DNA of 64,000 nucleotides from a virus: IMG/VR virus record IMGVR_UViG_3300045988_149572; one strand, 5' to 3'. Numbering within the stretch: the first letter of the stretch is position 1; each line of letters starts with the position of its first letter. A program made the translations under genes and the position numbers. Below, piece by piece: positions 8,702 through 43,874 of the stretch. The notes under the pieces are model-generated. The model saw only the letters and a program-made list of their open reading frames with translations. It was not told the DNA's origin and did not search any database.

Positions 8702-10693
8702 GTGTTCTATAACTTTGAGGATATGATAAAGGTTAACAAGAATAGAATGGTACCGTTGTCTCGGCTTACTCAAAGAGAGCGAGCCGAGATGGACACGGTC
8801 AAGTTTGACAACAAGTTCAACGATGACCGCAAAGCGACAGACATCCTTTTCCTTGCGAAGAACTATTGGGATGCTATGAGCAAGTTCCGCAAAGACCGGA
8901 AGCGCAACAAAGATTACAATTACGGCAACCAATGGGGCGACAAGGTGGTAGTGGACGGCAAGGCGATGACCGAGGAGGAGTATATCATAAAACAAGGCGG
9001 CACACCGCTGAAGTCCAATCTTATCCGCAGGCTTGTGCGCAACGTGCTTGGAGTGTACCGCACTCAGACCAAGGAGCCAATGTGTGTAGCTCGAGACCGA
9101 GACGAGCAGACGCTCGGAGAAACAATGTCGACCATACTCCAGTACAATTGGCAGTTGAACCATATGTCGGAGATAAATGCGAGGTCGTATGAGGATTTCC
9201 TCATAGGCGGTCTCGTTGTGCATAAGAAAACGTTCGGGTGGCGCAACGGCAAGTGCGACTGCTGGACAGACTATGTCAATCCGGACAATTTCTTTGTTGA
9301 CAACAGAGTCACCGACTTCCGCAGTTGGGATACGCAGGTAATAGGCGAGATACACGACTATTCGTTCGAAGATGTGTGCCGAGAGTTCTCACATTCACCG
9401 GAAGACTATGCGGCGTTGCGAGGAATCTACGCACAGGCGCACAATGCCAAGTACTATTCCATAGACACGTCATATACTTTCGGATCGAAGAGGGAAGGAG
9501 ACCTTGACTTCTTCATCCCCCAAGACCCTAACCTATGCCGTGTCATAGAGGTTTGGAACAAGGAGATGAAACCACGCTTCCGGTGTCATGACTATATGAC
9601 GGGAGACTACTACAAGATAGACGAGGAAGACTATAAAGAGTTTGTCTTGGACGAGAACCAACGCAGAAAGGAACAGGGTATGGCACAGGGCATCGAGGAG
9701 GACGACATCCCTACCATTGAGGCTGAATGGTTTATGGATGACTATTGGTATTACAGATTCCTCACCCCTTTCGGTCACATATTGCAGGAAGGCGAGACAC
9801 CCTACAAACATCATTCCCATCCGTATGTATACAAGGCATATCCTTTGATTGACGGAGAGATTCACTCGTTTGTCAGCGATGTCATAGACCAGCAGAAATA
9901 CGTTAACAGACTGATAACGCTGAACGACCTTGTCATACGCAGCAGTGCCAAAGGAGTTGTCCTCTTCCCCGAGGAAGCAAAGCCTGACGGAGTAACTTGG
10001 CGAGAGTTGCAGGAGACGTGGGCGAGAGCGGACGGCTTTATGGTGTACAACGGCAAGAGCGGCACAGCACCGAGACAAATGAGCAGCAACAACACCAACG
10101 TAGGCATCCAAGAGTTGTTGTCGTTGCAGTTGAAGTTCTTCGAGGACATCAGCGGTGTCAACGGAGCGTTGCAAGGCAAGCCGGGCTATTCGGGGATGTC
10201 GGGAACGTTGTATGCGCAACAGACACAGAACGCCACCACATCGCTTGTGGACTTGCTTGAGACATTCTCATCGTTCGTGGTGCAGTCGGCATACAAGGAC
10301 GTGAAGAATATGCAGCAGTTCTACGACACCAAGAAAAAGGTGAACATTGCAGGACGCAGTGGCGGAGCGGTGGTCTACGACCCTGAGAAGATAAACAACA
10401 TAGAGTTTGACCTTTCCATTGTCGAAAGCACGCAGACACCTGTCGTGCGTCAGATGGCGAACGACTTCCTTATGCAGATATGGCAGTCCGGTCAGATTAC
10501 ATTGGAGCAGTTGTTGGAGGCTGGCAATTTCCCATTTGCCGACAGTCTGTTGCAGCAAATCAAGACACAAGGACAGGCGATAGCGCAAGGACAGCAACCA
10601 CAGCCGTTGTCGGCAGACGTGCAGCAACAAGTACAGCGGCAGGCGAACCAAGCCGCTGTACAGCAGATGCAGACTATAATGCAGAGATCCTAA
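8702..10693 (+). CDS. portal protein (candidate)
   Basis: 663-aa ORF (GTG at 8702, first ATG at 8723) between the giant protein and the convergently oriented terminase. Size, Q-rich C-terminus and position fit a portal. No motif-level proof. Confidence 0.6.
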   Translation: MFYNFEDMIKVNKNRMVPLSRLTQRERAEMDTVKFDNKFNDDRKATDILFLAKNYWDAMSKFRKDRKRNKDYNYGNQWGDKVVVDGKAMTEEEYIIKQGGTPLKSNLIRRLVRNVLGVYRTQTKEPMCVARDRDEQTLGETMSTILQYNWQLNHMSEINARSYEDFLIGGLVVHKKTFGWRNGKCDCWTDYVNPDNFFVDNRVTDFRSWDTQVIGEIHDYSFEDVCREFSHSPEDYAALRGIYAQAHNAKYYSIDTSYTFGSKREGDLDFFIPQDPNLCRVIEVWNKEMKPRFRCHDYMTGDYYKIDEEDYKEFVLDENQRRKEQGMAQGIEEDDIPTIEAEWFMDDYWYYRFLTPFGHILQEGETPYKHHSHPYVYKAYPLIDGEIHSFVSDVIDQQKYVNRLITLNDLVIRSSAKGVVLFPEEAKPDGVTWRELQETWARADGFMVYNGKSGTAPRQMSSNNTNVGIQELLSLQLKFFEDISGVNGALQGKPGYSGMSGTLYAQQTQNATTSLVDLLETFSSFVVQSAYKDVKNMQQFYDTKKKVNIAGRSGGAVVYDPEKINNIEFDLSIVESTQTPVVRQMANDFLMQIWQSGQITLEQLLEAGNFPFADSLLQQIKTQGQAIAQGQQPQPLSADVQQQVQRQANQAAVQQMQTIMQRS

Positions 10694-11001
10694 CGCTTGG
10701 TGAACCAATCGAGGAATGCGGAATGTTTAAGGGCGATGATGTCGGCAGGCATCTCGCCCTTTCCGTTCCTATAGGGGGTGCAATAGAAACACGCCCTTTG
10801 CATATCGGCAACGGACGCATCTTTAGGTATGTAGTTTTTCCGTTTGAGGATCCTGAAGTTGCGTCTGTCAACAACGACAAGTCTGCTATCCTCAGACGGC
10901 ATCACATAATAACGCTCACCATTTTCACTATGAGCGTTGTCCGCGTTTCTTACGGCAAGAGAATACACAATCTCAGCCTTGATTTTCTTGAAAATATTCA
11001 T
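10690..11001 (-). CDS. hypothetical protein
   Basis: 103-aa ORF on the same strand, starting 1 nt after the terL stop. Confidence 0.5.
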   Translation of the reverse strand: MNIFKKIKAEIVYSLAVRNADNAHSENGERYYVMPSEDSRLVVVDRRNFRILKRKNYIPKDASVADMQRACFYCTPYRNGKGEMPADIIALKHSAFLDWFTKR

Positions 11002-11002
11002 A

Positions 11003-13078
11003 TCAGAATTTTGCTAAAGAGTTAATATTGGTCTTTGTTATCAGTCTATCGTTGTGTGCTACAACGCTTGGACGTTCCATCTCGAAGAAGCATATATGCA
11101 ACCCAATGGCACGAGTCATCAACAAGTCATCGTGCTTTCCGATTTCCGCACCGAACGATCCGTTCTGCTTCTGTTCGTAGCATAGATACTCATCAAGGCA
11201 CCGCTCGTCACGCTCTACATACAGAGCCTCCCTGACGACTTTCACAAGCGTGGATATAATCATCGGCTTCGTCTGCACGTTTGTATGGAATCCATACTTC
11301 ACGCTTCTCCCCTCACGGATGTCAATCTCGCTCGGCTTGCGCGCATACAGATTGTTGTAGACATTCTTGATTTGGTTGAGGATGAACACCGACTGGTCGC
11401 CATCAACCATTCTGTCCCTGTCTTTAGTTTCAAGGGTGTTGGACTCTATGACAAGCAGGCTGTCGTTGTATAGTTTGGCTATCTGAGCCGCTTTCCAAGC
11501 AAGAAGGTCGTGGTCTATATGTCCGTACCATTGCGCCACCACGCAAGGTTTTCCGTCCGTCTCCATCATCCAATACCTGTCGAACACCACGACAACGGAG
11601 AAGTCGGCTTTGCTGGAGCGGCCGCCAACGTCCACCACAGTAAGGTATCGGTTTGCGATGCGCTTGTCAGGGAACACTTCCGGCAATTCCCACACACAGA
11701 ATTTTCCTTGCGAGTCAGCCTCAAACTTCACGTGCTGCAAAGCCTCCTTGCCGCTGTCACCGTCACCATACACGTCCCCGACAAGCTGAGGAGGACGACA
11801 GGACGGTTTGAGCAATTCCACCTTGTATTTGTCGAACACCGAGCATCCTGAGTGTTGGAAAGCCTCCACGTCATCGGATGGATATTCGGCAGCCATATCA
11901 CCGTGTTCATCATACTCGGCACGTTTCAGACAATACCAATGGATTCCTTCAAGCGTGGCTCCCTGCTGCCATAGCCACCACAGATACTTTCCGCTGTCGT
12001 GCCGTCTGTCCGAGATATACTCGTTAAGTCTGTTCTTGTAGAGATTCCTTGCAAATTCATCCCTGTCTTTTATCGGCAGCGTGTATCTCTCAATCTTGAA
12101 CCACGGCACGAACAAGGATTTGAATGTAGACTTGTTCTCCTTAGCCGCCCGGTATTCAGACTCGAAGAAATTACCCGTTCCGTTGGCTGTGGACTCATAG
12201 ACAATCATTGTCATAGGCATAAGACCAGCACCGGAGCAGGCGGTACGCACAATCTCCTGCGGTGTCTTGCCCTCGGTCTTCTTCCAAAACGCCACCTCGG
12301 TGCAATGTACAAGCGCGGAGTCTCCGCCACGCGCGGAGTTAGGCTCCACGGCAGTGCCTATCTTCACCTTGCAGTTGCGTTGCGGAATCTTGAAGATGTT
12401 CCCCGATGCGGCTTCCGTCATAAACTTAGGCTCGTTGTCCTTGAAAGACGCACCGACATCGTACATCATCTCCAATGGATATGCCTGAATCAGTTTGTCG
12501 AACATACCTTTCACTTCCACCGAAGCATCCTTCGTGTGACCGACTATAAGGCTGTTCCATCCCGTCTTGTGGACAAGTTGTATCCACGACATATAAATCT
12601 GCGTCACCGTAGAGCCGCCCCATTGGCGAGCCTTCAGCACTATCACACGGATGGGCGCACCGGCAAGGCGCATCTCCTCGAACACCGACACAAGCATACG
12701 TTGCGGAAGATTCAGCGAAAAAGGAATGTCATCGCCACCCTCCTTGTTCTTGATTCTTGCGAACACGAACGCCCAAAAGCAGAAGTCGTGCTTGCACCGT
12801 ATGCGTATAAGTGTTTCCGACAAGGCTTCCTTTCCTATTTCCGGTCTGCCCGACGCTCCGAGGAACTTCGCCAAAGAACCGCACCTAAGCACCGCTTTCA
12901 CGAAAGGCTCCTCAAGCATCGCTTTCGGCACGTACTGCCTCGGTATGTCAAAGTCGGGAATCTCAATCCATTCACGTTCCAATATAGCACCTTCTCCGGT
13001 CAAAGGATTGAACGGAGCGAAAAGGACGGCATTCCTCTTGTCATTCTCCTTCAGCAATCGTTCAATTTCTTCTTCCAT
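11003..13078 (-). CDS. terL: terminase large subunit
   Basis: 691 aa. Walker A-like LKARQWGGST. Later nuclease-type acidic strand VVDVGGRSSKADFSVVVVFD. Neighbourhood of portal and capsid genes. Confidence 0.85.
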   Translation of the reverse strand: MEEEIERLLKENDKRNAVLFAPFNPLTGEGAILEREWIEIPDFDIPRQYVPKAMLEEPFVKAVLRCGSLAKFLGASGRPEIGKEALSETLIRIRCKHDFCFWAFVFARIKNKEGGDDIPFSLNLPQRMLVSVFEEMRLAGAPIRVIVLKARQWGGSTVTQIYMSWIQLVHKTGWNSLIVGHTKDASVEVKGMFDKLIQAYPLEMMYDVGASFKDNEPKFMTEAASGNIFKIPQRNCKVKIGTAVEPNSARGGDSALVHCTEVAFWKKTEGKTPQEIVRTACSGAGLMPMTMIVYESTANGTGNFFESEYRAAKENKSTFKSLFVPWFKIERYTLPIKDRDEFARNLYKNRLNEYISDRRHDSGKYLWWLWQQGATLEGIHWYCLKRAEYDEHGDMAAEYPSDDVEAFQHSGCSVFDKYKVELLKPSCRPPQLVGDVYGDGDSGKEALQHVKFEADSQGKFCVWELPEVFPDKRIANRYLTVVDVGGRSSKADFSVVVVFDRYWMMETDGKPCVVAQWYGHIDHDLLAWKAAQIAKLYNDSLLVIESNTLETKDRDRMVDGDQSVFILNQIKNVYNNLYARKPSEIDIREGRSVKYGFHTNVQTKPMIISTLVKVVREALYVERDERCLDEYLCYEQKQNGSFGAEIGKHDDLLMTRAIGLHICFFEMERPSVVAHNDRLITKTNINSLAKF

Positions 13079-13545
13079 TTAATCGGATTGATAAGCAGTC
13101 CGTACAACAGACCTGCGATGTAACAATATAGATGGATTATGCCGTTCACACTCGGTATGAGCATACCAAGGAGAATGAACGCTGCCATATATGAATGGTA
13201 GTAAACCTTGTGCTCCACCAGATAACTGAAGCGACCGAGCAGAACGAAGCATATTCCGGACAATCCTACAGTAGGCACGTCCCACATTATAGGAGTGAAC
13301 GAAGCGCAGACAAACGCCACAACAATGTCGGACACCGCAATGTTGAAAGTGAACGCCACGGCAAGCAGACACCACACGTTCATAAGACAGTGGATAGCAG
13401 AGACGTGGAAGAAATGATAAAGGAATCTGTTGCGGAAAGCGCATCCGTCGAATATGGCGAAAGCCTCCACATCGTTCACGAGTAGAAGACAAATAACAGC
13501 GGCTGACACCGCAAGCACTATATTGCGAGCTGTCCGTTTCTCCAT
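13051..13545 (-). CDS. rhomboid-family intramembrane serine protease (minimal, 164 aa)
   Basis: FFHVSAIHCLMN (HxxxxHxxxN), GLSGICFVLLG (GxSG, catalytic Ser) and IIHLYCYIAGLLYG (catalytic His plus GxxxG) occur in the canonical order on successive hydrophobic helices. Overlaps the terL start by 28 nt. Confidence 0.7.
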   Translation of the reverse strand: MEKRTARNIVLAVSAAVICLLLVNDVEAFAIFDGCAFRNRFLYHFFHVSAIHCLMNVWCLLAVAFTFNIAVSDIVVAFVCASFTPIMWDVPTVGLSGICFVLLGRFSYLVEHKVYYHSYMAAFILLGMLIPSVNGIIHLYCYIAGLLYGLLINPIKWKKKLNDC

Positions 13546-13940
13546 CTCTTCTTGATTTTATGGAGGATGACCTTTGCACTCTTTATTGTGAGATAGAACT
13601 TAGGCGCACCGCCCTCTATCACACGTATAACGGCATCCTCAAGTTTGATACCTTCGTGAGTCCGCTCAATCTCAGCCACACGCTTCTCTATCTCCTCGAA
13701 CATCTCTCTGCGAGTGCCGCCCATCTGTGCCAAGTCATAGCCCTTGCGTATCTTGTGGATCATCACGACCGCACGTTCTATGGACACCCAGAAATGCGAT
13801 GTCGGAGAATTTATGGTTGCAGTAAGAATGTCAGAAAGGTTGAACTCCCCTTTCTGAAGCGACAACTGTTCACGGAACGCACGCATAAGGTCTCTGTCCC
13901 TGTCGTCCTTGAAACACGCAATGCTACCTTTCTGTCTCAT
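13518..13940 (-). CDS. hypothetical protein; small-terminase candidate by position only
   Basis: 140-aa basic protein, first gene of the 13940->10690 operon. Overlaps the rhomboid gene by 28 nt. Confidence 0.3.
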   Translation of the reverse strand: MRQKGSIACFKDDRDRDLMRAFREQLSLQKGEFNLSDILTATINSPTSHFWVSIERAVVMIHKIRKGYDLAQMGGTRREMFEEIEKRVAEIERTHEGIKLEDAVIRVIEGGAPKFYLTIKSAKVILHKIKKRWRNGQLAI

Positions 13941-13947
13941 ACCCTAT

Positions 13948-13955
13948 CAAAATTA
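13948..13955 (-). promoter_or_regulatory. Bacteroidota -7 box (TAATTTTG)
   Basis: Reverse complement of caaaatta matches TAnnTTTG. Lies a few nt upstream of the ATG at 13940, implying a near-leaderless mRNA. Confidence 0.35.
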
Positions 13956-14002
13956 AAAATTACTCAGTTAATAAAAAAGACTGATAGCCAACACGATAGG
14001 AG

Positions 14003-14010
14003 TAACTTTG
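14003..14010 (+). promoter_or_regulatory. Bacteroidota -7 box (TAACTTTG)
   Basis: Matches TAnnTTTG, 33 nt upstream of the scaffold ATG. Divergent from the box at 13948-13955. Confidence 0.45.
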
Positions 14011-14042
14011 GGTAAGTAAGAATATAAACAAAGCAAATCAAT

Positions 14043-14855: not shown

Positions 14856-16304
14856 ATGAAGAAAGAATTTTTGAAAAAGAACTTGTGGCGAATGCTTTTG
14901 GGTATTTTGGCAATGGTGTTCGGCGCAACGGACGCCGTCGTAATGGCGGCAGCGGCAGACCTTCCTGACGCAGGAAAGACCAATTCGGGCAACCCCGACA
15001 GCAACGACGGCATCGCGACCGAGACGCAAGGACGTGAGGACGGTGATCCGGAGATGTACACCAAGGACATCGATTCAAAGATCGTCAAAATCCGTCCGAT
15101 GGCTACGCCTATCGACCAAATCAGCCGATACGGCAAGTTCTTGAAGACCGACTCAATGATCGTCAAGTACTATTCTCTCGGCACACGACCCATCAAGACA
15201 ACGTTGTCGGAGAATGTACTCAAGATGGAGAATGGTGCCACATCTATGACAATCAAGGTGTCAGACCCGACAATGTTCACATTGGACGACACCATCCGTG
15301 TTGTCGGTGCGAAGGCGGTTTCTCGCCCGGACGGAACTAAATACAACGATGAAGACCCGTTGGAGAAAGATGACCCAATGCGTCCCGACTTGATTCTGTG
15401 TGTGTGCGGCAGAGACCAGAACAACGGTTATCCAGTAGTGTATGCGGTCAACGGAGACTTGAACGACAAGAAAGAGCCGATTCTCATTCCTGCGCTCAAC
15501 AAGGACGAAGTGACACTCATCCGTATGGGCAAGGCTTGTGCGGAACTTGACGTTCAGACAGGACGTTTCAACAACCTTCCTACAAGCGAGGAACAGTATT
15601 GTCAGAACTTTATGATTCAAGTGGAGCAGTCCACATTTGACAAGATTGCGTCAAAAGAGGTTGATTGGAACTTCTCCGACATCGAGGAGGACGGCATCTA
15701 TGATATGCGCCTTGCACAGGAGAACACATATCTCTTCGGAGCGAAAGCACGTATCAAGCACATCACAAAGGACAATATGGACACTTGGTTCACAGGCGGT
15801 ATTTGGTATATGGCAGGTAAGGACATCGAGGTCGGAGCATACAATGAGACACGCAAATGTGTGGAAATCAGCGATGACAACCTTGTCGAGATTTCAAAGG
15901 ACTTGTTTGTGGGCACGGGCATCGGCAACAAACGCAAGGTCATCCTCTGCGGCTCCGATATGCTTGAGGCTTTCTCTAAAATCAAGTCGGAGAAATTCCG
16001 CTTGAAAGAGAACGTAGAATCTTGGAATCTTAAATTCAAGTCTTGGTCTACCGACTTCGGTGAACTTCTTGTCATCCATCACGAGCTGTTCGATATGAAC
16101 GGAATGAGCGACTGCGGCTTTGCTCTCGATCCCGAGTATCTCACGAAGAAGACCCACATCTCTTGGCAGCGCAACGTGCTTGACTTGAAGAAGGCAGGCA
16201 TCCGCAACACTGACGCAGTAGTGATCCAGGAGGTCGCTTGTCTGTATCTGCGTTATGCCAAGGCACACGCACGAATGAAACTTGCGGCAAAGGCAGGAGC
16301 GTAA
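14856..16304 (+). CDS. major capsid protein (candidate) with N-terminal hydrophobic extension
   Basis: 482 aa, follows the scaffold gene by 15 nt and is followed by a strong terminator. The first ~66 aa contain a TM-like stretch NLWRMLLGILAMVFGATDAVVMAAAA, then an acidic linker. Confidence 0.6.
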   Translation: MKKEFLKKNLWRMLLGILAMVFGATDAVVMAAAADLPDAGKTNSGNPDSNDGIATETQGREDGDPEMYTKDIDSKIVKIRPMATPIDQISRYGKFLKTDSMIVKYYSLGTRPIKTTLSENVLKMENGATSMTIKVSDPTMFTLDDTIRVVGAKAVSRPDGTKYNDEDPLEKDDPMRPDLILCVCGRDQNNGYPVVYAVNGDLNDKKEPILIPALNKDEVTLIRMGKACAELDVQTGRFNNLPTSEEQYCQNFMIQVEQSTFDKIASKEVDWNFSDIEEDGIYDMRLAQENTYLFGAKARIKHITKDNMDTWFTGGIWYMAGKDIEVGAYNETRKCVEISDDNLVEISKDLFVGTGIGNKRKVILCGSDMLEAFSKIKSEKFRLKENVESWNLKFKSWSTDFGELLVIHHELFDMNGMSDCGFALDPEYLTKKTHISWQRNVLDLKKAGIRNTDAVVIQEVACLYLRYAKAHARMKLAAKAGA

Positions 16305-22836: not shown

Positions 22837-23286
22837 ATGATAACAAAACAGAACAACGAGATTTTCAGCACGACAGGAAAGTACGTGCATATCATAGGAA
22901 CAGACAACTATTTCAAACGGGGACTCGCTATCGGTCTGTCGGTAGAACAGTGCGAGGAAGTGGACGAAGTGCCGCAGACCATCAACACCAAAGCCTATGA
23001 AGACAAGGTAGACAGCCTTATCCGCAACCGCTACTCGCTCAGCGAGGAACTCGGCACACTGCGACAAAAAGACGTGAAGAAAGCGGAATATGACGCTTAT
23101 TTCGCCTACTGCGAGCAGTGCAAGGCGGAAGCGAGGGAGTGGTTGAAGGAACATCCTAACGGCGATTTGCCGCCATTGCCGCAAGTGGAAGAAGTGACGG
23201 ACTATCTTTCGGAAACAACTGACGATGTTGTGGGATTTGGCAATAAAAAAAGGCAGCAAGGGCGAAGTCCCCACTGCCTATTATAG
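22837..23286 (+). CDS. hypothetical protein (fibre-associated by position)
   Basis: 149-aa ORF starting 5 nt after the fibre gene stop. Its last ~12 codons run through a terminator-like hairpin. Confidence 0.5.
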   Translation: MITKQNNEIFSTTGKYVHIIGTDNYFKRGLAIGLSVEQCEEVDEVPQTINTKAYEDKVDSLIRNRYSLSEELGTLRQKDVKKAEYDAYFAYCEQCKAEAREWLKEHPNGDLPPLPQVEEVTDYLSETTDDVVGFGNKKRQQGRSPHCLL

Positions 23287-23371: not shown

Positions 23372-23860
23372 ATGACAGGAACGGCAGTTAATAATAGCCT
23401 ACGCATAGGCACGGCAAGTATGGGAGTGTTCATAGGCGAAATCAGCACACTGCTCTGGGATATGCGGTGGCTGATGCTCCTCGCTGGAGTGTTGATTATT
23501 GTAGACTTGTGGCTCGGTGTTCACAAGTCTATCTCCAACAACGTTGACATCCGAGCGAGCCGCGCTCTACGGAGAACAATGATGAAAATAGCCGACTATT
23601 TGTGCGTCGTGATACTCGGGGCGGTGGTCGGCAAGGCACTCGGAGAACCGCTCGGATGCTCCGCTATCGTAATCGCCGTGGTGCTTATGTCGATAGCGTG
23701 TTTGTGCGAACTCGACAGCATCATCAGCAACTGGGGCGAAATTAAAGGAGTGAAGATAAACGTCTTCAAAATAGTTCTCGGTCTTGTAGGCTACAAGCGC
23801 AAGGAACTTGGAGAAGCACTGAAAGGAACAATTACAATCACTAAAAAACGGAAGAAATGA
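23372..23860 (+). CDS. holin (candidate)
   Basis: 162 aa with three to four hydrophobic helices and a basic tail (KKRKK). ATGA overlap with the endolysin gene. Confidence 0.55.
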   Translation: MTGTAVNNSLRIGTASMGVFIGEISTLLWDMRWLMLLAGVLIIVDLWLGVHKSISNNVDIRASRALRRTMMKIADYLCVVILGAVVGKALGEPLGCSAIVIAVVLMSIACLCELDSIISNWGEIKGVKINVFKIVLGLVGYKRKELGEALKGTITITKKRKK

Positions 23861-25052: not shown

Positions 25053-25097
25053 CAATAACTGGTGGTGTGCCGTTTTGTTTATCAAACCGATTTAGTT

Positions 25098-26177
25098 ATG
25101 GAAAATAAGCAATTGACATTCGCAAGGGAATACAGAGGATTGTCGCAGACAGAATTGGCAAAGCGAGTTGCTGGCTTATCGCAATCCAACCTTTCAAAGT
25201 TTGAAAAATTAGGAGGTTCTTTGTCAGAAACCGCATTGCGCAATGCAATGAAGGCTCTTGAATTTCCTTTCGAGTTTCTCAATATAGAAATCAACAACAA
25301 TCCCGAGAGCAAACACTACCGCAAGAAAAATCAGATTGGAGAGAAGGACAAGACAAAAATAGATAGGTTTGTATCGACTGCGGCTTATGTGTTCGACAAC
25401 ATTCTTGATGAGTTTGAAGCTCCTCCTTTTAATTTTCATTACCTTGATGTGGAGAATGGAATAAGCCCGGAGGAGGCTGCAAGACAGACACGCAGAACGT
25501 GCCGAATTGGATGTGGCGCAATCCGTAACATCTGCAATCTTCTGGAACGCAATGGTGTGTTTGTGTATTTTTGGGATTGCGAGTATAAGGATTTTGACGG
25601 GGTGTCGCTTGTCTCCGACAAGGGGAACCATATTGTTGTCGTCAACAAGAATATGCCGAACGACCGCATCCGCTTTTCTCTTGCCCACGAGCTTGGACAT
25701 TTGATAATGCACAACAGTATGTTCATCGTCCTTGAGGCGAGGGATAAGGAAAAAGAAGCCAATCAATTTGCGGCGGAATTTTTGATGCCAGAGAGGGAGA
25801 TAGGTAGTGCTCTTCTGAACTTGAAACCATCGGCATTGCCCCTGCTGAAGCGAATGTGGCTGACATCAATGTCGTCTTTGGTTGTGCGTGCGAAAACTCT
25901 CGGGAAAATAGACAGCAACAGATACAAAATGCTTATGACAGAATTGAGTCGTAAAGGATGGCGCACAAACGAGCCTATACAGGTGGAGCTTGACAGCCCG
26001 ACATATTTGGCGGATGCGGAAAATATGTTGCAGGATGAATTCAATTTGGACTATACAGAGCAAGCAAGGATGATGTCCTTGCCAGTAGATATACTCAGAC
26101 TGATTTTTCAAGGAAAAGCGATGACAAAGATGTTGAAACCGTTGCTTCTGATAAATCAGCAACCGAACACTCCATAA
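25098..26177 (+). CDS. XRE-type HTH fused to ImmA/IrrE (M78) zinc metallopeptidase
   Basis: N-terminal FAREYRGLSQTELAKRVAGLSQSNLSKFE helix-turn-helix. HExxH in SLAHELGHLIMH. The track ORF begins at 25062; ATG at 25098 (MENKQL) is preferred. Confidence 0.8.
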   Translation: MENKQLTFAREYRGLSQTELAKRVAGLSQSNLSKFEKLGGSLSETALRNAMKALEFPFEFLNIEINNNPESKHYRKKNQIGEKDKTKIDRFVSTAAYVFDNILDEFEAPPFNFHYLDVENGISPEEAARQTRRTCRIGCGAIRNICNLLERNGVFVYFWDCEYKDFDGVSLVSDKGNHIVVVNKNMPNDRIRFSLAHELGHLIMHNSMFIVLEARDKEKEANQFAAEFLMPEREIGSALLNLKPSALPLLKRMWLTSMSSLVVRAKTLGKIDSNRYKMLMTELSRKGWRTNEPIQVELDSPTYLADAENMLQDEFNLDYTEQARMMSLPVDILRLIFQGKAMTKMLKPLLLINQQPNTP

Positions 26178-26258: not shown

Positions 26259-26687
26259 ATGAGAGATGACGAGAAATGCAGATATGTCTGCGTGGTGATA
26301 GGCTGGGTGCTGATTGCCGTGCTTGCGGTGATGTGCCTCGGATGCAAGTCGGTGCAGTATGTACCTGTGGAGTCTGTGCGCACCGATACGTGCTACGTGA
26401 ACAAGATTCGCACCGATTCCGTGTATGTGCGCGACTCGGTGGTCGTGGAGCGCAGCGGTGACACAATCAAGGTGACTGCGTGGCGGTGGCGCGAGCGGTA
26501 CGTTGTGCAGCGCGACACCATCTATCGGAGCAAGACGGACAGCATTGCCGTACCTTACCCCGTGGAGCGCAAACTCTCTCGATGGGAAAAGACGAAGCAG
26601 GACATCGGCGGCATAGCCATCGGTGCGTTCATCGCCGTTGTGTCGGCGGTCGTGATTTGGTTGGCGGTGAAGAAGATGCGGAAATAG
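26259..26687 (+). CDS. unimolecular spanin candidate (lipoprotein signal plus C-terminal TM)
   Basis: N-terminal signal VVIGWVLIAVLAVMCLGC with a possible lipobox. Beta-rich repeats (VRTDTCYV, IRTDSVYV, QRDTIYR). C-terminal helix IGGIAIGAFIAVVSAVVIWLAV followed by KKMRK. Confidence 0.45.
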   Translation: MRDDEKCRYVCVVIGWVLIAVLAVMCLGCKSVQYVPVESVRTDTCYVNKIRTDSVYVRDSVVVERSGDTIKVTAWRWRERYVVQRDTIYRSKTDSIAVPYPVERKLSRWEKTKQDIGGIAIGAFIAVVSAVVIWLAVKKMRK

Positions 26688-40927: not shown

Positions 40928-41363
40928 TGTCTTTTAGTTTTGTTAGATTATGTCAAAAATGTCCAGTTGTCTTGGTTCTGTCACTCGTCCGGAGGGGAAG
41001 AACAATTGCTCGAAGATATGTTCCATACAGGCGACCACAATTGAGTTGCCTGCGAGCTTGTATTGCTGGGACTCCGAGATGTACATCGGCTTCCCGTTCT
41101 TTCTGTGACCCTTGACGTAGTTTTTGATCTTGTTGTAGTCCTCATCTGAGACATCCATCAGGCGGAAACACTCGCGCGGAGTAAGTCTGCGGATGCGATA
41201 TGGAAACGTGTCACCGTAGACGTTGTTAGGTCTGGCGGACGTGAGGGTTGACCCCACGGATTCGGCGAACTCGGTCTGTAGTTCTGCGACACCGCTTTTC
41301 GCTTTGTCCTGCCTATAAGGGCGCAGGTTGTTGTCCTTGTCCACCGACACTCCACAAGGCTGA

Positions 41364-41422
41364 CGGCGAACCTCCTCCGCTACTCGGCGAACCTCCTCCG
41401 CTACTCGGCGAACCTCCTCCGC
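41364..41422. repeat. 21-bp tandem repeat, 2.8 copies, in frame (AEEVRRV x3)
   Basis: cggcgaacctcctccgctact repeated at 41364, 41385 and 41406 (last copy partial). Confidence 0.9.
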
Positions 41423-42221
41423 CTTCGGCTCCAAGACTGCGTTTTCCTCACCCGTGAGGAGAGTGCCGATGATGTCGCCCTTGTTGCCCTGTACTCTCCC
41501 TCGGCGAGTACGGGATGACGGCTGAGAGATGTTGACCGCACCGTACTCCTCCACCTCCGCAAAGCCTTCCCTTGTGTTGGCTTTGATGCGCAAAGGTTCA
41601 AGCAGCATATTGTCTTTCTGCACGCTTGTTATAGTGTTGGACACACCGTCTGTTCTTGGTTCCATCTGTTGCATATATTTCCTTTGTATGTTAATTCTGT
41701 GATTCTCATAATCCTTTCTCAGAAGTTTGGCTTCTTCGGTGCGCTTGGGAGTCAATACATTAGGCTCCCTTCCTCTACTCGCCACCACGAACGGCTCGGC
41801 GATAGAGACGGTCTCTCCGTGGTTGTTCATATCAACAATCGGCTTTGGCTCCAACACATATTGAGCAGTGTTGCCCCTTGTCCCCGTGCTGCAATGGATG
41901 GTGTTCGCTACCTCTTTCGTGTGGTAGTTCTCAATCTTTCCTTTCTTGTCGCGTGAGTAACTCACAATCTTAGGTTCTTCTTTCATCTCGATTATTTTAG
42001 GGATAAGCCCTCCCCCCGACGGGGTGGTGATGGCAGGAGAGACACCATCCGTTATGTACATTCTATATGCCCGATGAAGACCGCTCTCCACGGTCATCAC
42101 TCTGTCCGTCTTCTTCATTGCTTGAATCTTCACTAACGAAATACATACAATTGGCATTCACCCTCGCCTTGATGGTTCCGGCTATGTCGTTGACGCATTG
42201 GTTGTATGTGTCTATCCATAG

Positions 42222-42341: not shown

Positions 42342-42628
42342 TATATCCGTGGTTGCGGAGGCATCGTGCCACCCCGTTGCAGGATATGATGTCCTCGCTT
42401 CTATATCCCGTCTTCTCGATCACTATGACCTTGTCTGTTTCCATTTTCCTCGTCTGCTATAGTTACTATACTTCCGTGGTTCAGCATCACCGTCGGAGAG
42501 ATTCCGTCAGTACCGATGACGATACCGCTTATCTGACTCTTCGGGTAAAGCCTTCCGACACGGTTTATTGTTCTTGGATGTAATTGTCGTCGTTCCTCAT
42601 CACGCCTGCTTGGATTGTCTTCGCTATA

Positions 42629-42637
42629 CCCCCCCCC
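42629..42637. repeat. homopolymer C9 (G9 on the coding strand)
   Basis: Counted directly. Encodes GGG in ...EYTEGGGIAKTIQ. Confidence 0.95.
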
Positions 42638-43382
42638 TCGGTGTACTCAAACTTGTGGTTGGTGGTGGTTTCGGCGTTCCATTTCAGCCGCCCCAATATC
42701 ACGTCAGTCTTAAGATAGTATCTATCCTCGACACTCTCACCGTCGTGGTATGTAACAAGTACGTCACGGAGCCGTCTTTCCAACGGGAACGGCTGAGGAA
42801 AATCATACTTGATGCCGCTCGGGAACAACTGTGGGAACTTGGCGGACGCATCCTTGCGGATGCTTAACGCGAACACCCTCACACGGTTCTGCGGAACACC
42901 GAAATCTTTAGCGTTTATCTTCTTCCAGTATGTCTTGTAGCCTTGCTCGTCAAGGTAGTCAATCCATCGCTGGAAGTCGGGCATAAACTTCTTGGAAGCC
43001 AACGCCGCCACGTTCTCGAGTAAAAGGAATGACGGACGCTTCGTCTCTATCGCCCTCCTACACTCCCATAGCAATGATGAGCGCGAACCACTGCCTTCCT
43101 GCAAGCCTCGCTGAAGTCCGGCATTGCTGATGTCCTGACAAGGGAAGCTGTAGGTGAACAAGTCGAAGTCAGACACTCGCTCCCAATCGACCTTGCTTAT
43201 GTCACCGTGGTTGCATTCGGCATATTCGGGGAACACGGCATTGTGGGCGGCTATTGCGTCATTGTCAATCTCGCTCCATCCGACAAGCTGGAAATCCGCA
43301 CCGCCAGCGTGGCGCCGTGCGACTCGGCGCAGAGCCATCATCTGCGAGCCGTAGCCGGCGAAAGCCTCGAACACTCTGATTC

Positions 43383-43874
43383 TCATATCAATCCGTTATT
43401 TGTGCTTCCGAAGCCGCCTTTTCCGCGCTCGGTAGCTTGGTTGAACAACTCTTCCTCATCCACGACCTCGACACCCTCATAGCTCACGGGGGTAAGCACG
43501 AACTGCGCCACCTTCATTCCTGGATGAATTACTTCTACGCATCTGCCGACATTGATGAGATGTATGTATATCTCGCCTTGATAGTCCTCGTCGACAACGC
43601 ACGCTCCGACAACGAGCGTTCCTTTGGGGGCGTTTGCCTTTGGCGTCAGACCAGCGCGCCGCATAGCGTCTGTGGATGTCGCCACGCTGGAGCGGTTCAT
43701 CGCAATCAGCGCGTAGCCGTGCGGCACTTCCGCCCTTATACCGCTCGGCACGAGGATGTCAGTCCCCGATGTCAGCCGAGCCGTGAAGCCTTTCGGCACG
43801 TAGAAGTCCAGCCCTGCCGAGCATTCAGTCCCTCTTGTGGGGGTCTTCACCTCCCTAATCTTCGTTATCTTCAT
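43383..43874 (-). CDS. dut: dUTP diphosphatase
   Basis: AGLDFYVP, NRSSVA, VVDEDYQGEI and RGKGGFGSTN are the dUTPase motifs, in order. Confidence 0.9.
   Translation of the reverse strand: MKITKIREVKTPTRGTECSAGLDFYVPKGFTARLTSGTDILVPSGIRAEVPHGYALIAMNRSSVATSTDAMRRAGLTPKANAPKGTLVVGACVVDEDYQGEIYIHLINVGRCVEVIHPGMKVAQFVLTPVSYEGVEVVDEEELFNQATERGKGGFGSTNNGLI

Follow-up and report, generated by a model that had tools for sequence, protein, structure and literature searches.

The 64,000-nucleotide stretch analysed here (IMG/VR virus record IMGVR_UViG_3300045988_149572; hereafter the window) is a temperate phage genome that also encodes a tyrosine integrase and a DnaB helicase. Its leftward packaging operon opens with a gene for a 140-amino-acid (aa) basic helical protein and continues with a 164-aa open reading frame (ORF), with terL, the gene for the large terminase subunit, and with a gene for a 103-aa soluble protein; the scaffold-like and major capsid genes are read in the opposite direction from the far side of a short intergenic region (Table 1). 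A preliminary description of the window had assigned the 164-aa ORF to the rhomboid intramembrane proteases because it carries HxxxxHxxxN, GxSG and a late His-GxxxG in the correct order, and the ORF and codon coordinates bear this out: FFHVSAIHCLMN provides H47, H52 and N56, GLSGICF provides G94, S96 and G97, and IIHLYCYIAGLLYG provides H138, G145 and G149. Judged by its sequence and its modelled structure, the product is a compact six-helix rhomboid-family protein with an intact Ser96/His138 dyad and an H52/N56 motif. We take H52 and N56 to be the counterparts of the GlpG oxyanion-hole residues H150 and N154.

The gene is joined at both ends to its neighbours by overlaps of the length previously reported. 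Its ATG at 13545 lies 28 nucleotides (nt) within the upstream 140-aa ORF, and its stop codon (13051-13053) lies 28 nt within the TerL ORF, which starts at 13078. Both annotated starts are supported by homologues, because M1 of the rhomboid is invariant among them and the nearest relatives, L183 and L184, conserve the first ~15 TerL residues. There is only one later in-frame TerL start, a TTG at codon 8, and it still overlaps the rhomboid ORF. These overlaps suggest that translation of the rhomboid is coupled to that of both neighbours. The GC content of the gene is 46.9%, compared with 48% for the whole window. In 10 near-identical viral contigs the gene differs from that of the window by 1-6 synonymous codon changes and 0 nonsynonymous ones, and in these close variants the pattern of changes points to purifying selection.

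When scanned alone, the window protein reached 16.6 bits against the Pfam Rhomboid family (PF01694), short of the gathering score of 22.6, with E=0.0093 and a match that spans positions 8-137 of the 143 in the profile. A protein search returned 16 homologues at 35-99% identity, several of them already labelled PF01694, and all 16 of the family members that were scanned singly matched PF01694, the best of them at E=1.2e-8. A profile made from the alignment of the 16 homologues and searched against the PDB found GlpG of H. influenzae (E=1.9e-7) and of E. coli (6.5e-5); its GlpG chain matches spanned E=1.9e-7 to 2.6e-3, there was no other significant match, and HxxxxHxxxN, GLSG and the His of transmembrane (TM) helix 6 were aligned in register. 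A single-sequence search of the PDB with phmmer gave a weak match to the membrane domain of ComEC (30bt_A, E=0.003, residues 14-126) through a shared 'FHFF.VS' helix, which may be a chance or distant resemblance between membrane domains. The PHROGs scan of the rhomboid ORF gave no family at E<=0.1, although the neighbouring genes do match PHROGs; the rhomboid family is absent from that library.

The AlphaFold2 (AF2) model of the protein (predicted local distance difference test, pLDDT, 90.9; predicted template-modelling score, pTM, 0.86) consists of six long helices, with predicted TM helices at residues 2-20, 39-66, 71-82, 96-109, 113-129 and 135-152. The comparison of such a model with GlpG, which the preliminary description had proposed, favours the rhomboid assignment: in a Foldseek search of the PDB the top 35 matches were all GlpG or iRhom, with probability 1.00 and template-modelling scores (TM-scores) of 0.50-0.67, and the next was Der1. 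Ser96, His138, His47, His52 and Gly94 are kept in 86/86 distinct homologues taken from 136 loci, N56 and G145 are each kept in 85/86, and homologues at 32-58% identity retain the rhomboid motifs. Loop L1 is only ~16 residues long; with regard to the WR motif, an Arg (R40) stands before TM2 in 12 of the 16 aligned members and the Trp is not conserved. Given the fold, the profile matches and the invariant catalytic residues, the phage protein is very probably an active rhomboid protease. Application of the positive-inside rule to its loop charges predicts an N-in/C-in topology like that of GlpG, with the active site towards the periplasmic leaflet.

Two narrower assignments were considered and rejected. 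Of the NCBIfam models, rhombosortase (TIGR03902) alone reaches E<=0.01, in 11/16 family members, but these relatives score 17.3-33.9 bits against an equivalog cut-off of 84 bits, and the window protein itself has no match at E<=1. There is also no co-conserved GlyGly-CTERM partner: the single protein in the window with a Gly-Gly, TM and basic-tail arrangement (26259..26687) is not found in the rhomboid-carrying cultured relatives. Membership of a known prohead protease family was rejected because the rhomboid ORF has no such Pfam or PHROG match and the fold search returns only rhomboids.

The position of the gene is conserved across a broad group of phages. In all 136 loci with a rhomboid homologue the gene lies in a phage head/packaging module, in an operon divergent from the scaffold and capsid genes, which gives good support to the earlier view of the gene as a fixed component of the packaging unit and not a random moron. 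The loci that were fetched include nine from metagenomes, 80 from IMG/VR (of 155 contigs that encode a relative) and 31 from GTDB genomes. The usual order is small protein, rhomboid and TerL, opposite scaffold and capsid genes; the rhomboid is directly before TerL in nearly all loci, and the small protein is directly upstream of the rhomboid in almost all. There are a few departures. The rhomboid is followed by TerL with no small protein detected upstream in L096, L172 and L182, two or three small ORFs separate the rhomboid from TerL in L098 and L100, and in L097 the pair of small protein and rhomboid is still beside the scaffold and capsid genes while TerL is not adjacent. No homologue was found in a non-phage context among the fetched loci, the 31 genome loci included, and within this set the rhomboid subfamily is found only in phages.

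The GTDB hosts include Prevotella, Bacteroides, Phocaeicola, Rikenellaceae, Butyricimonas, Muribaculaceae, Alloprevotella, Tannerellaceae and Porphyromonadaceae, and the carriers are a large clade of temperate gut Bacteroidales phages with a P22-like portal, an HK97-fold capsid and a giant polyvalent protein. The cassette is also present in three cultured temperate Bacteroides phages: BKO1-TP3 (gp49-gp50-gp51), BS-TP4 and BF1-TP2 (gp58-gp59-gp60). In GenBank their rhomboids are labelled 'glycoside hydrolase' (BKO1-TP3), 'rhomboid domain-containing protein' (BS-TP4) and 'rhomboid family intramembrane serine protease' (BF1-TP2). The paper that describes the cultured Bacteroides phages reports them to be temperate and never mentions the rhomboid gene (PMC12694917). 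The TerL homologue is mislabelled 'tail spike protein' in the GenBank records PQ571269, PQ571277 and PQ571263 of cultured Bacteroides phages (L001, L091).

A hydrophobicity scan of the window ORFs identified just one conserved head-module protein with a TM-like segment, the major capsid protein. The segment is part of an N-terminal leader that lies outside the Pfam capsid domain and is made up of the basic stretch MKKEFLKKNLWR, the small-residue hydrophobic helix MLLGILAMVFGATDAVVMAAAA, a conserved LPDAGKT and a Gly/Asp/Thr linker that runs to about residue 64-67. In the AF2 model of the capsid protein (pLDDT 85.6) a helix at residues 2-23 is followed by disorder at 24-55 and then by the HK97 fold, and the top Foldseek matches were the capsids of Vibrio phage VP1, phicrAss001, SU10 and HK97. 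All six capsid proteins that were compared first have the leader, including the 47%-identical protein of BF1-TP2, and it is conserved in 82 loci with 43 distinct N-termini, for which the consensus is basic-hydrophobic-GASxGVxMAxAS-LPDAGKT. A HMMER search with the capsid protein returned 617 representative relatives; among the best 150 of these 117 are full-length, and 100 of the 117 have an N-terminal hydrophobic segment, down to 28% identity. The leader is thus near-universal in the capsid family, whether the rhomboid is present or not, and the 'leader-less' representatives are probably start-codon miscalls.

From its composition and conservation, the leader resembles a membrane-targeting propeptide that could be removed by a cut in its zone of small residues, and these features would suit a substrate of a rhomboid and a substrate of signal peptidase alike. 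We know of no description of a leader resembling a signal peptide or signal anchor on the capsid protein of a tailed phage. The SU10 capsid was rejected as a guide to processing: it is remotely related and has no hydrophobic leader. The SU10 structure paper makes no mention of capsid cleavage.

These observations lead us to propose, tentatively and as the likeliest of several roles though one less likely than not, that the rhomboid acts on the phage's own major capsid protein, in which it would cut the signal-anchor-like N-terminal presequence. We put forward with slightly more reserve the fuller scheme in which the capsid protein is made as a membrane-anchored precursor and is freed through intramembrane proteolysis by the phage rhomboid, which is co-expressed with the terminase. 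The rhomboid would be made with TerL late in infection and would be inserted in the inner membrane of the host with both of its ends in the cytoplasm. The leader would tether the capsid protein to the same membrane, with the flexible linker of ~30 residues keeping the folded HK97 domain cytoplasmic and the end of the helix reaching the outer leaflet. The cut would fall in the run of small residues at the helix's outer end (GASxGVxMAxAS in the relatives and VVMAAAA in the window) and would free assembly-competent capsid protein. The timing and the amount of release would follow the production of terminase, and the supply of capsid protein would in this way be linked to that of terminase. A membrane-embedded enzyme cannot act inside the procapsid; its action would be possible only before assembly.

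Several findings are in agreement with the capsid protein as substrate. The leader holds the small and helix-breaking residues that are typical of intramembrane cleavage sites, and in the AF2 model it forms a helix of its own, joined to the rest by a disordered tether. Every rhomboid-carrying locus with a complete capsid gene has the leader. As noted previously, a conventional prohead protease is not to be recognised in the structural module: among the head-module ORFs from the portal to position 23286, neither Pfam nor PHROGs detects a prohead protease or any other protease. A prohead protease is commonly missing from phages that have a P22-type portal and a separate scaffolding protein, and its absence here is therefore not anomalous.

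Other findings weigh against cleavage of the capsid leader by the rhomboid, and those from the wider capsid family come from distant capsid-branch loci in which every ORF was searched with an iterated rhomboid hidden Markov model; in the sister loci this search covered +/-10 kb. The rhomboid was present in only 14 of the 91 newly fetched distant loci. About 68 sister-clade loci with the same layout of TerL, scaffold and capsid genes have a hydrophobic capsid leader and no rhomboid within 10 kb, with ample flank upstream of TerL. The capsid tree places the rhomboid-positive loci in essentially one clade and the rhomboid-negative loci in its sister (IMG/VR contigs L103-L170, L173 and L179) and, because rhomboid presence amounts to essentially one clade, there is no phylogenetically independent correlation between leader and rhomboid. 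Within the positive clade, L092-L095 have a rearranged module in which the hydrophobic segment is kept and no rhomboid is seen; these contigs are short. The charges that flank the leader predict an N-in, signal-peptide-like orientation, and canonical rhomboid substrates are N-out. A capsid protein that was fully translocated would be useless for assembly, and the AxA-like motif would suit host signal peptidase I just as well.

The leaders of the two clades differ in length. In the rhomboid-positive clade the uncharged span has a median of 22 aa, which is the length of a single TM helix, and is flanked by charges of about +4 on the N side and -2 on the C side; in the rhomboid-negative clade the flanking charges are similar and the span has a longer median of 35 aa, possibly a helical hairpin. 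A search of the rhomboid-less sister loci L140 and L158 for a classical prohead protease found none. The distribution indicates that the leader is an ancestral trait of the capsid family and that the rhomboid represents a single acquisition or loss at the level of the clade. The co-occurrence data are compatible with the capsid protein being the substrate; they neither prove nor kill that idea.

The rhomboid might instead cut one or more inner-membrane proteins of the host late in infection, its place in the packaging operon setting only timing and dose. Such cleavage could disable a transporter, a quality-control or stress sensor or a component of secretion, or it could block superinfection or a defence pathway. 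We regard this as somewhat unlikely, although it has precedent: the bacterial rhomboids characterised so far are all known to act on membrane proteins of the cell, namely TatA for AarA, MgtE for YqgP, and orphan complex subunits for GlpG and Rhom7. The topology predicted here, like that of GlpG, turns the active site to the periplasm and would suit a host target too. The existence of the leader without the rhomboid in the sister clade also speaks for a target elsewhere, because it means that the rhomboid is not needed for the leader in general. On the other hand, accessory host-directed genes are usually variable and found at module borders, whereas the rhomboid keeps one position down to 32% identity; it has no detectable relatives in a non-phage context among the 31 genome loci and no PADLOC defence-system match, and the sequence names no candidate host substrate. 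Processing of another phage membrane protein, such as a holin, antiholin or spanin, would tune the timing of lysis to packaging, and here the window does offer candidates: a holin-like multi-TM protein adjoins an M15 endolysin, and the lipoprotein at 26259..26687, with its C-terminal Gly-Gly, TM helix and basic tail, has the N-out/C-in arrangement that rhomboids and rhombosortases prefer. We nevertheless consider a lysis target improbable. The spanin-like protein is absent from the rhomboid-carrying cultured relatives and so is not co-conserved, the rhombosortase model, while the only significant NCBIfam match in 11/16 members, is reached at just 17-34 bits of the required 84, and the lysis genes are 10 kb away in a different, variable module.

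Two further explanations were weighed. A moron expressed in the lysogen could, for example, exclude superinfecting phages by cutting their membrane-inserting ejection proteins as these come in; the phage has an integrase, its cultured relatives are temperate, and the moron-like regions of Stenotrophomonas phages DLP3 and DLP5 contain rhomboid-superfamily genes. That the window rhomboid is such a gene is highly improbable in view of the overlaps with both neighbours, which leave no room for a promoter or terminator of its own, of its location inside the terminase operon in every lineage, and of a GC content that matches that of the window. A non-proteolytic function is also conceivable, in which the protein would act as a membrane dock or chaperone for capsid, portal or terminase in the manner of the iRhom- and Derlin-like pseudoproteases. 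Inactive members of the rhomboid superfamily do handle membrane proteins, the iRhom1 and Der1 matches show that the fold is shared, and gp20 and gp40 of phage T4 are a precedent for membrane-bound initiation of head assembly. We think this very improbable indeed: pseudoproteases typically lose the residues that are invariant here (Ser96, His138, His52 and Gly94, with Asn56 in 85/86) and that are expected of an active enzyme.

Set beside the rhomboid proteases that have been characterised, the phage protein shares with GlpG of E. coli and H. influenzae (MEROPS S54, PF01694) the six-TM core fold, the motifs and the predicted N-in/C-in topology. It differs from GlpG in being only 164 aa long, without the cytoplasmic N-terminal domain, in having a very short L1 in which the Arg of the WR motif appears to be kept and the Trp is not, in having Phe100 at the position of GlpG Tyr205, and in being phage-encoded and found only in the head/packaging operon. 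The rhombosortases are also minimal rhomboids, of ~150-190 aa, and process GlyGly-CTERM proteins. In Providencia stuartii, AarA activates TatA by removing a short N-terminal extension beside a TM helix, which resembles what is proposed for the capsid protein; TatA, however, is N-out and stays in the membrane, whereas the capsid leader is predicted to be N-in and its product must leave the membrane. The prohead proteases (gp4 of HK97, gp21 of T4 and C of lambda) are likewise products of the head module that take an N-terminal propeptide off an HK97-fold capsid protein, but they are soluble, are packaged in the procapsid and have herpesvirus-protease or ClpP-type folds, and no sequence similarity to them was detected.

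Rhomboid-like genes have been noticed in phages before, in other settings or by name only. A 'rhomboid membrane protein' is listed among the hypothetical and envelope-modifying genes of Stenotrophomonas phages DLP3 and DLP5, where these are discussed as morons (PMC7326821); it is not in a terminase/head operon there, and it shares with the window protein that it is phage-encoded and belongs to the rhomboid superfamily. UniProt A0A8S5TE03, 'Protein glpG-like protein [Podoviridae sp. ctzXp5]', has a BFVD model with a TM-score of 0.73-0.77 to the window rhomboid, one of a few uncultured-phage models in BFVD that are named 'GlpG-like'. The rhomboid and GlpG-like names that databases give to phage members are automatic only. 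The preliminary description had not known an intramembrane protease in this position as a described phage feature. This stands as far as papers are concerned, in that a full-text literature search turned up no discussion of a rhomboid in the head or terminase operon of a phage; it does not stand for database names, since GenBank (BS-TP4 and BF1-TP2) and UniProt already call such proteins rhomboid or 'GlpG-like'. What we describe is a known enzyme family in a new and strictly conserved viral context.

Neither a catalytically intact intramembrane protease conserved between the gene in the position of terS and terL nor a signal-anchor-like leader on an HK97-fold capsid protein was to be expected. 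The two findings suggest that a step of head assembly is linked to the membrane in a prophage group that is among the most abundant of the human gut. The natural substrates of bacterial rhomboids are largely unknown, and the confinement of this enzyme to a small viral module gives a short list of plausible substrates, with a strong candidate, the capsid protein, encoded ~1.3 kb away. Should the capsid protein indeed be released in this way, it would be, to our knowledge, the first case in which intramembrane proteolysis controls head assembly in a tailed phage, and it would provide a natural and genetically tractable pair of substrate and enzyme for a bacterial-type rhomboid. If the target is instead a host protein, the rhomboid would represent a new mechanism of host manipulation at a late stage of infection. 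Direct testing is feasible in the three cultured temperate Bacteroides phages that have the cassette.

Table 1. Genes and sequence features of the window, with the evidence for each
Feature	Position	Strand	Evidence or remarks
Giant polyvalent protein, at least 2893 aa	4..8685	+	LPD13, LPD5, LPD1 and LPD38 domains; beside portal gene
P22-like portal, convergent with packaging operon	8702..10693	+	Pfam P22_portal E=1.3e-40; phrog_156
103-aa soluble protein, function unknown, last operon gene	10690..11001	-	phrog_22658 E=5e-38; syntenic in most loci
TerL, large terminase subunit, 691 aa	11003..13078	-	phrog_2 terminase large subunit E=1.1e-16
Predicted rhomboid-family intramembrane serine protease, 164 aa	13051..13545	-	ORF, Pfam Rhomboid match, family profile, AF2 model
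His138 codon (TM6; catalytic), followed by AGLLYG (GxxxG)	13132..13134	-	Aligned to GlpG catalytic His
Ser96 codon (GLSG, start of TM4; catalytic)	13258..13260	-	Aligned to GlpG GLSG serine
End of loop L1 and TM2 motif, R40-x3-H44-x2-H47-x4-H52-x3-N56	13378..13428	-	GlpG alignment, conservation in homologues
140-aa basic helical protein, first gene of leftward operon	13518..13940	-	phrog_27246 (function unknown) E=1.4e-29
AT-rich intergenic region, 102 bp, between leftward operon and rightward scaffold/capsid genes	13941..14042	.	Sequence
Scaffold-like acidic protein, 265 aa	14043..14840	+	phrog_22323 E=2.7e-80
Major capsid protein, 482 aa, HK97 fold from about residue 56-65	14856..16304	+	Pfam SU10_MCP E=8.5e-32, residues 65-475
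Capsid presequence, residues 1-67	14856..15056	+	Hydrophobicity scan, conservation, AF2
Holin-like multi-TM protein	23372..23860		Adjoins M15 endolysin
371-aa regulator, helix-turn-helix and ImmA/IrrE-type metalloprotease	25062..26177	+	phrog_2439, phrog_87
142-aa lipoprotein	26259..26687	+	Lipobox LGC; C-terminal Gly-Gly, TM helix, KKMRK tail
Tyrosine integrase	29354..30649		
IS110-family transposase	36289..37350	-	DEDD_Tnp_IS110 and Transposase_20
C5 cytosine methylase, N- and C-terminal parts of the profile in two ORFs ~400 nt apart	42565..43386, 40943..42157	-, -	C5 cytosine methylase profile

Among the neighbours of the rhomboid, the 140-aa protein has an internal duplication (…FWVSIERAVVMIHKIRKG… and …FYLTIKSAKVILHKIKKR…) and no Pfam match and no PDB sequence or profile match; its position beside TerL makes it a candidate small terminase or DNA-binding protein. 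The AT-rich region upstream of it is the presumed site of divergent late promoters. A scan of the region for sigma-70 promoters and terminators gave background-level counts only, with a tool that does not model Bacteroidota promoters. In the compared loci the scaffold-like gene is always between the divergent region and the capsid gene.

The giant polyvalent protein has a single hydrophobic segment, at residues 2483-2501, and its relatives, which are up to 4000-6000 aa long, have ParB, helicase, kinase or ART domains. The layout of the 142-aa lipoprotein is that of a unimolecular spanin and resembles the GlyGly-CTERM signal; its homologues are found in crAss-like and other Bacteroides phages, and not in the rhomboid-carrying cultured relatives. 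The IS110-family transposase gene lies within the phage genome. The two ORFs that share the C5 methylase profile may represent one gene that has been split or disrupted, or else two separate genes. The 371-aa regulator is probably part of the lysogeny switch.

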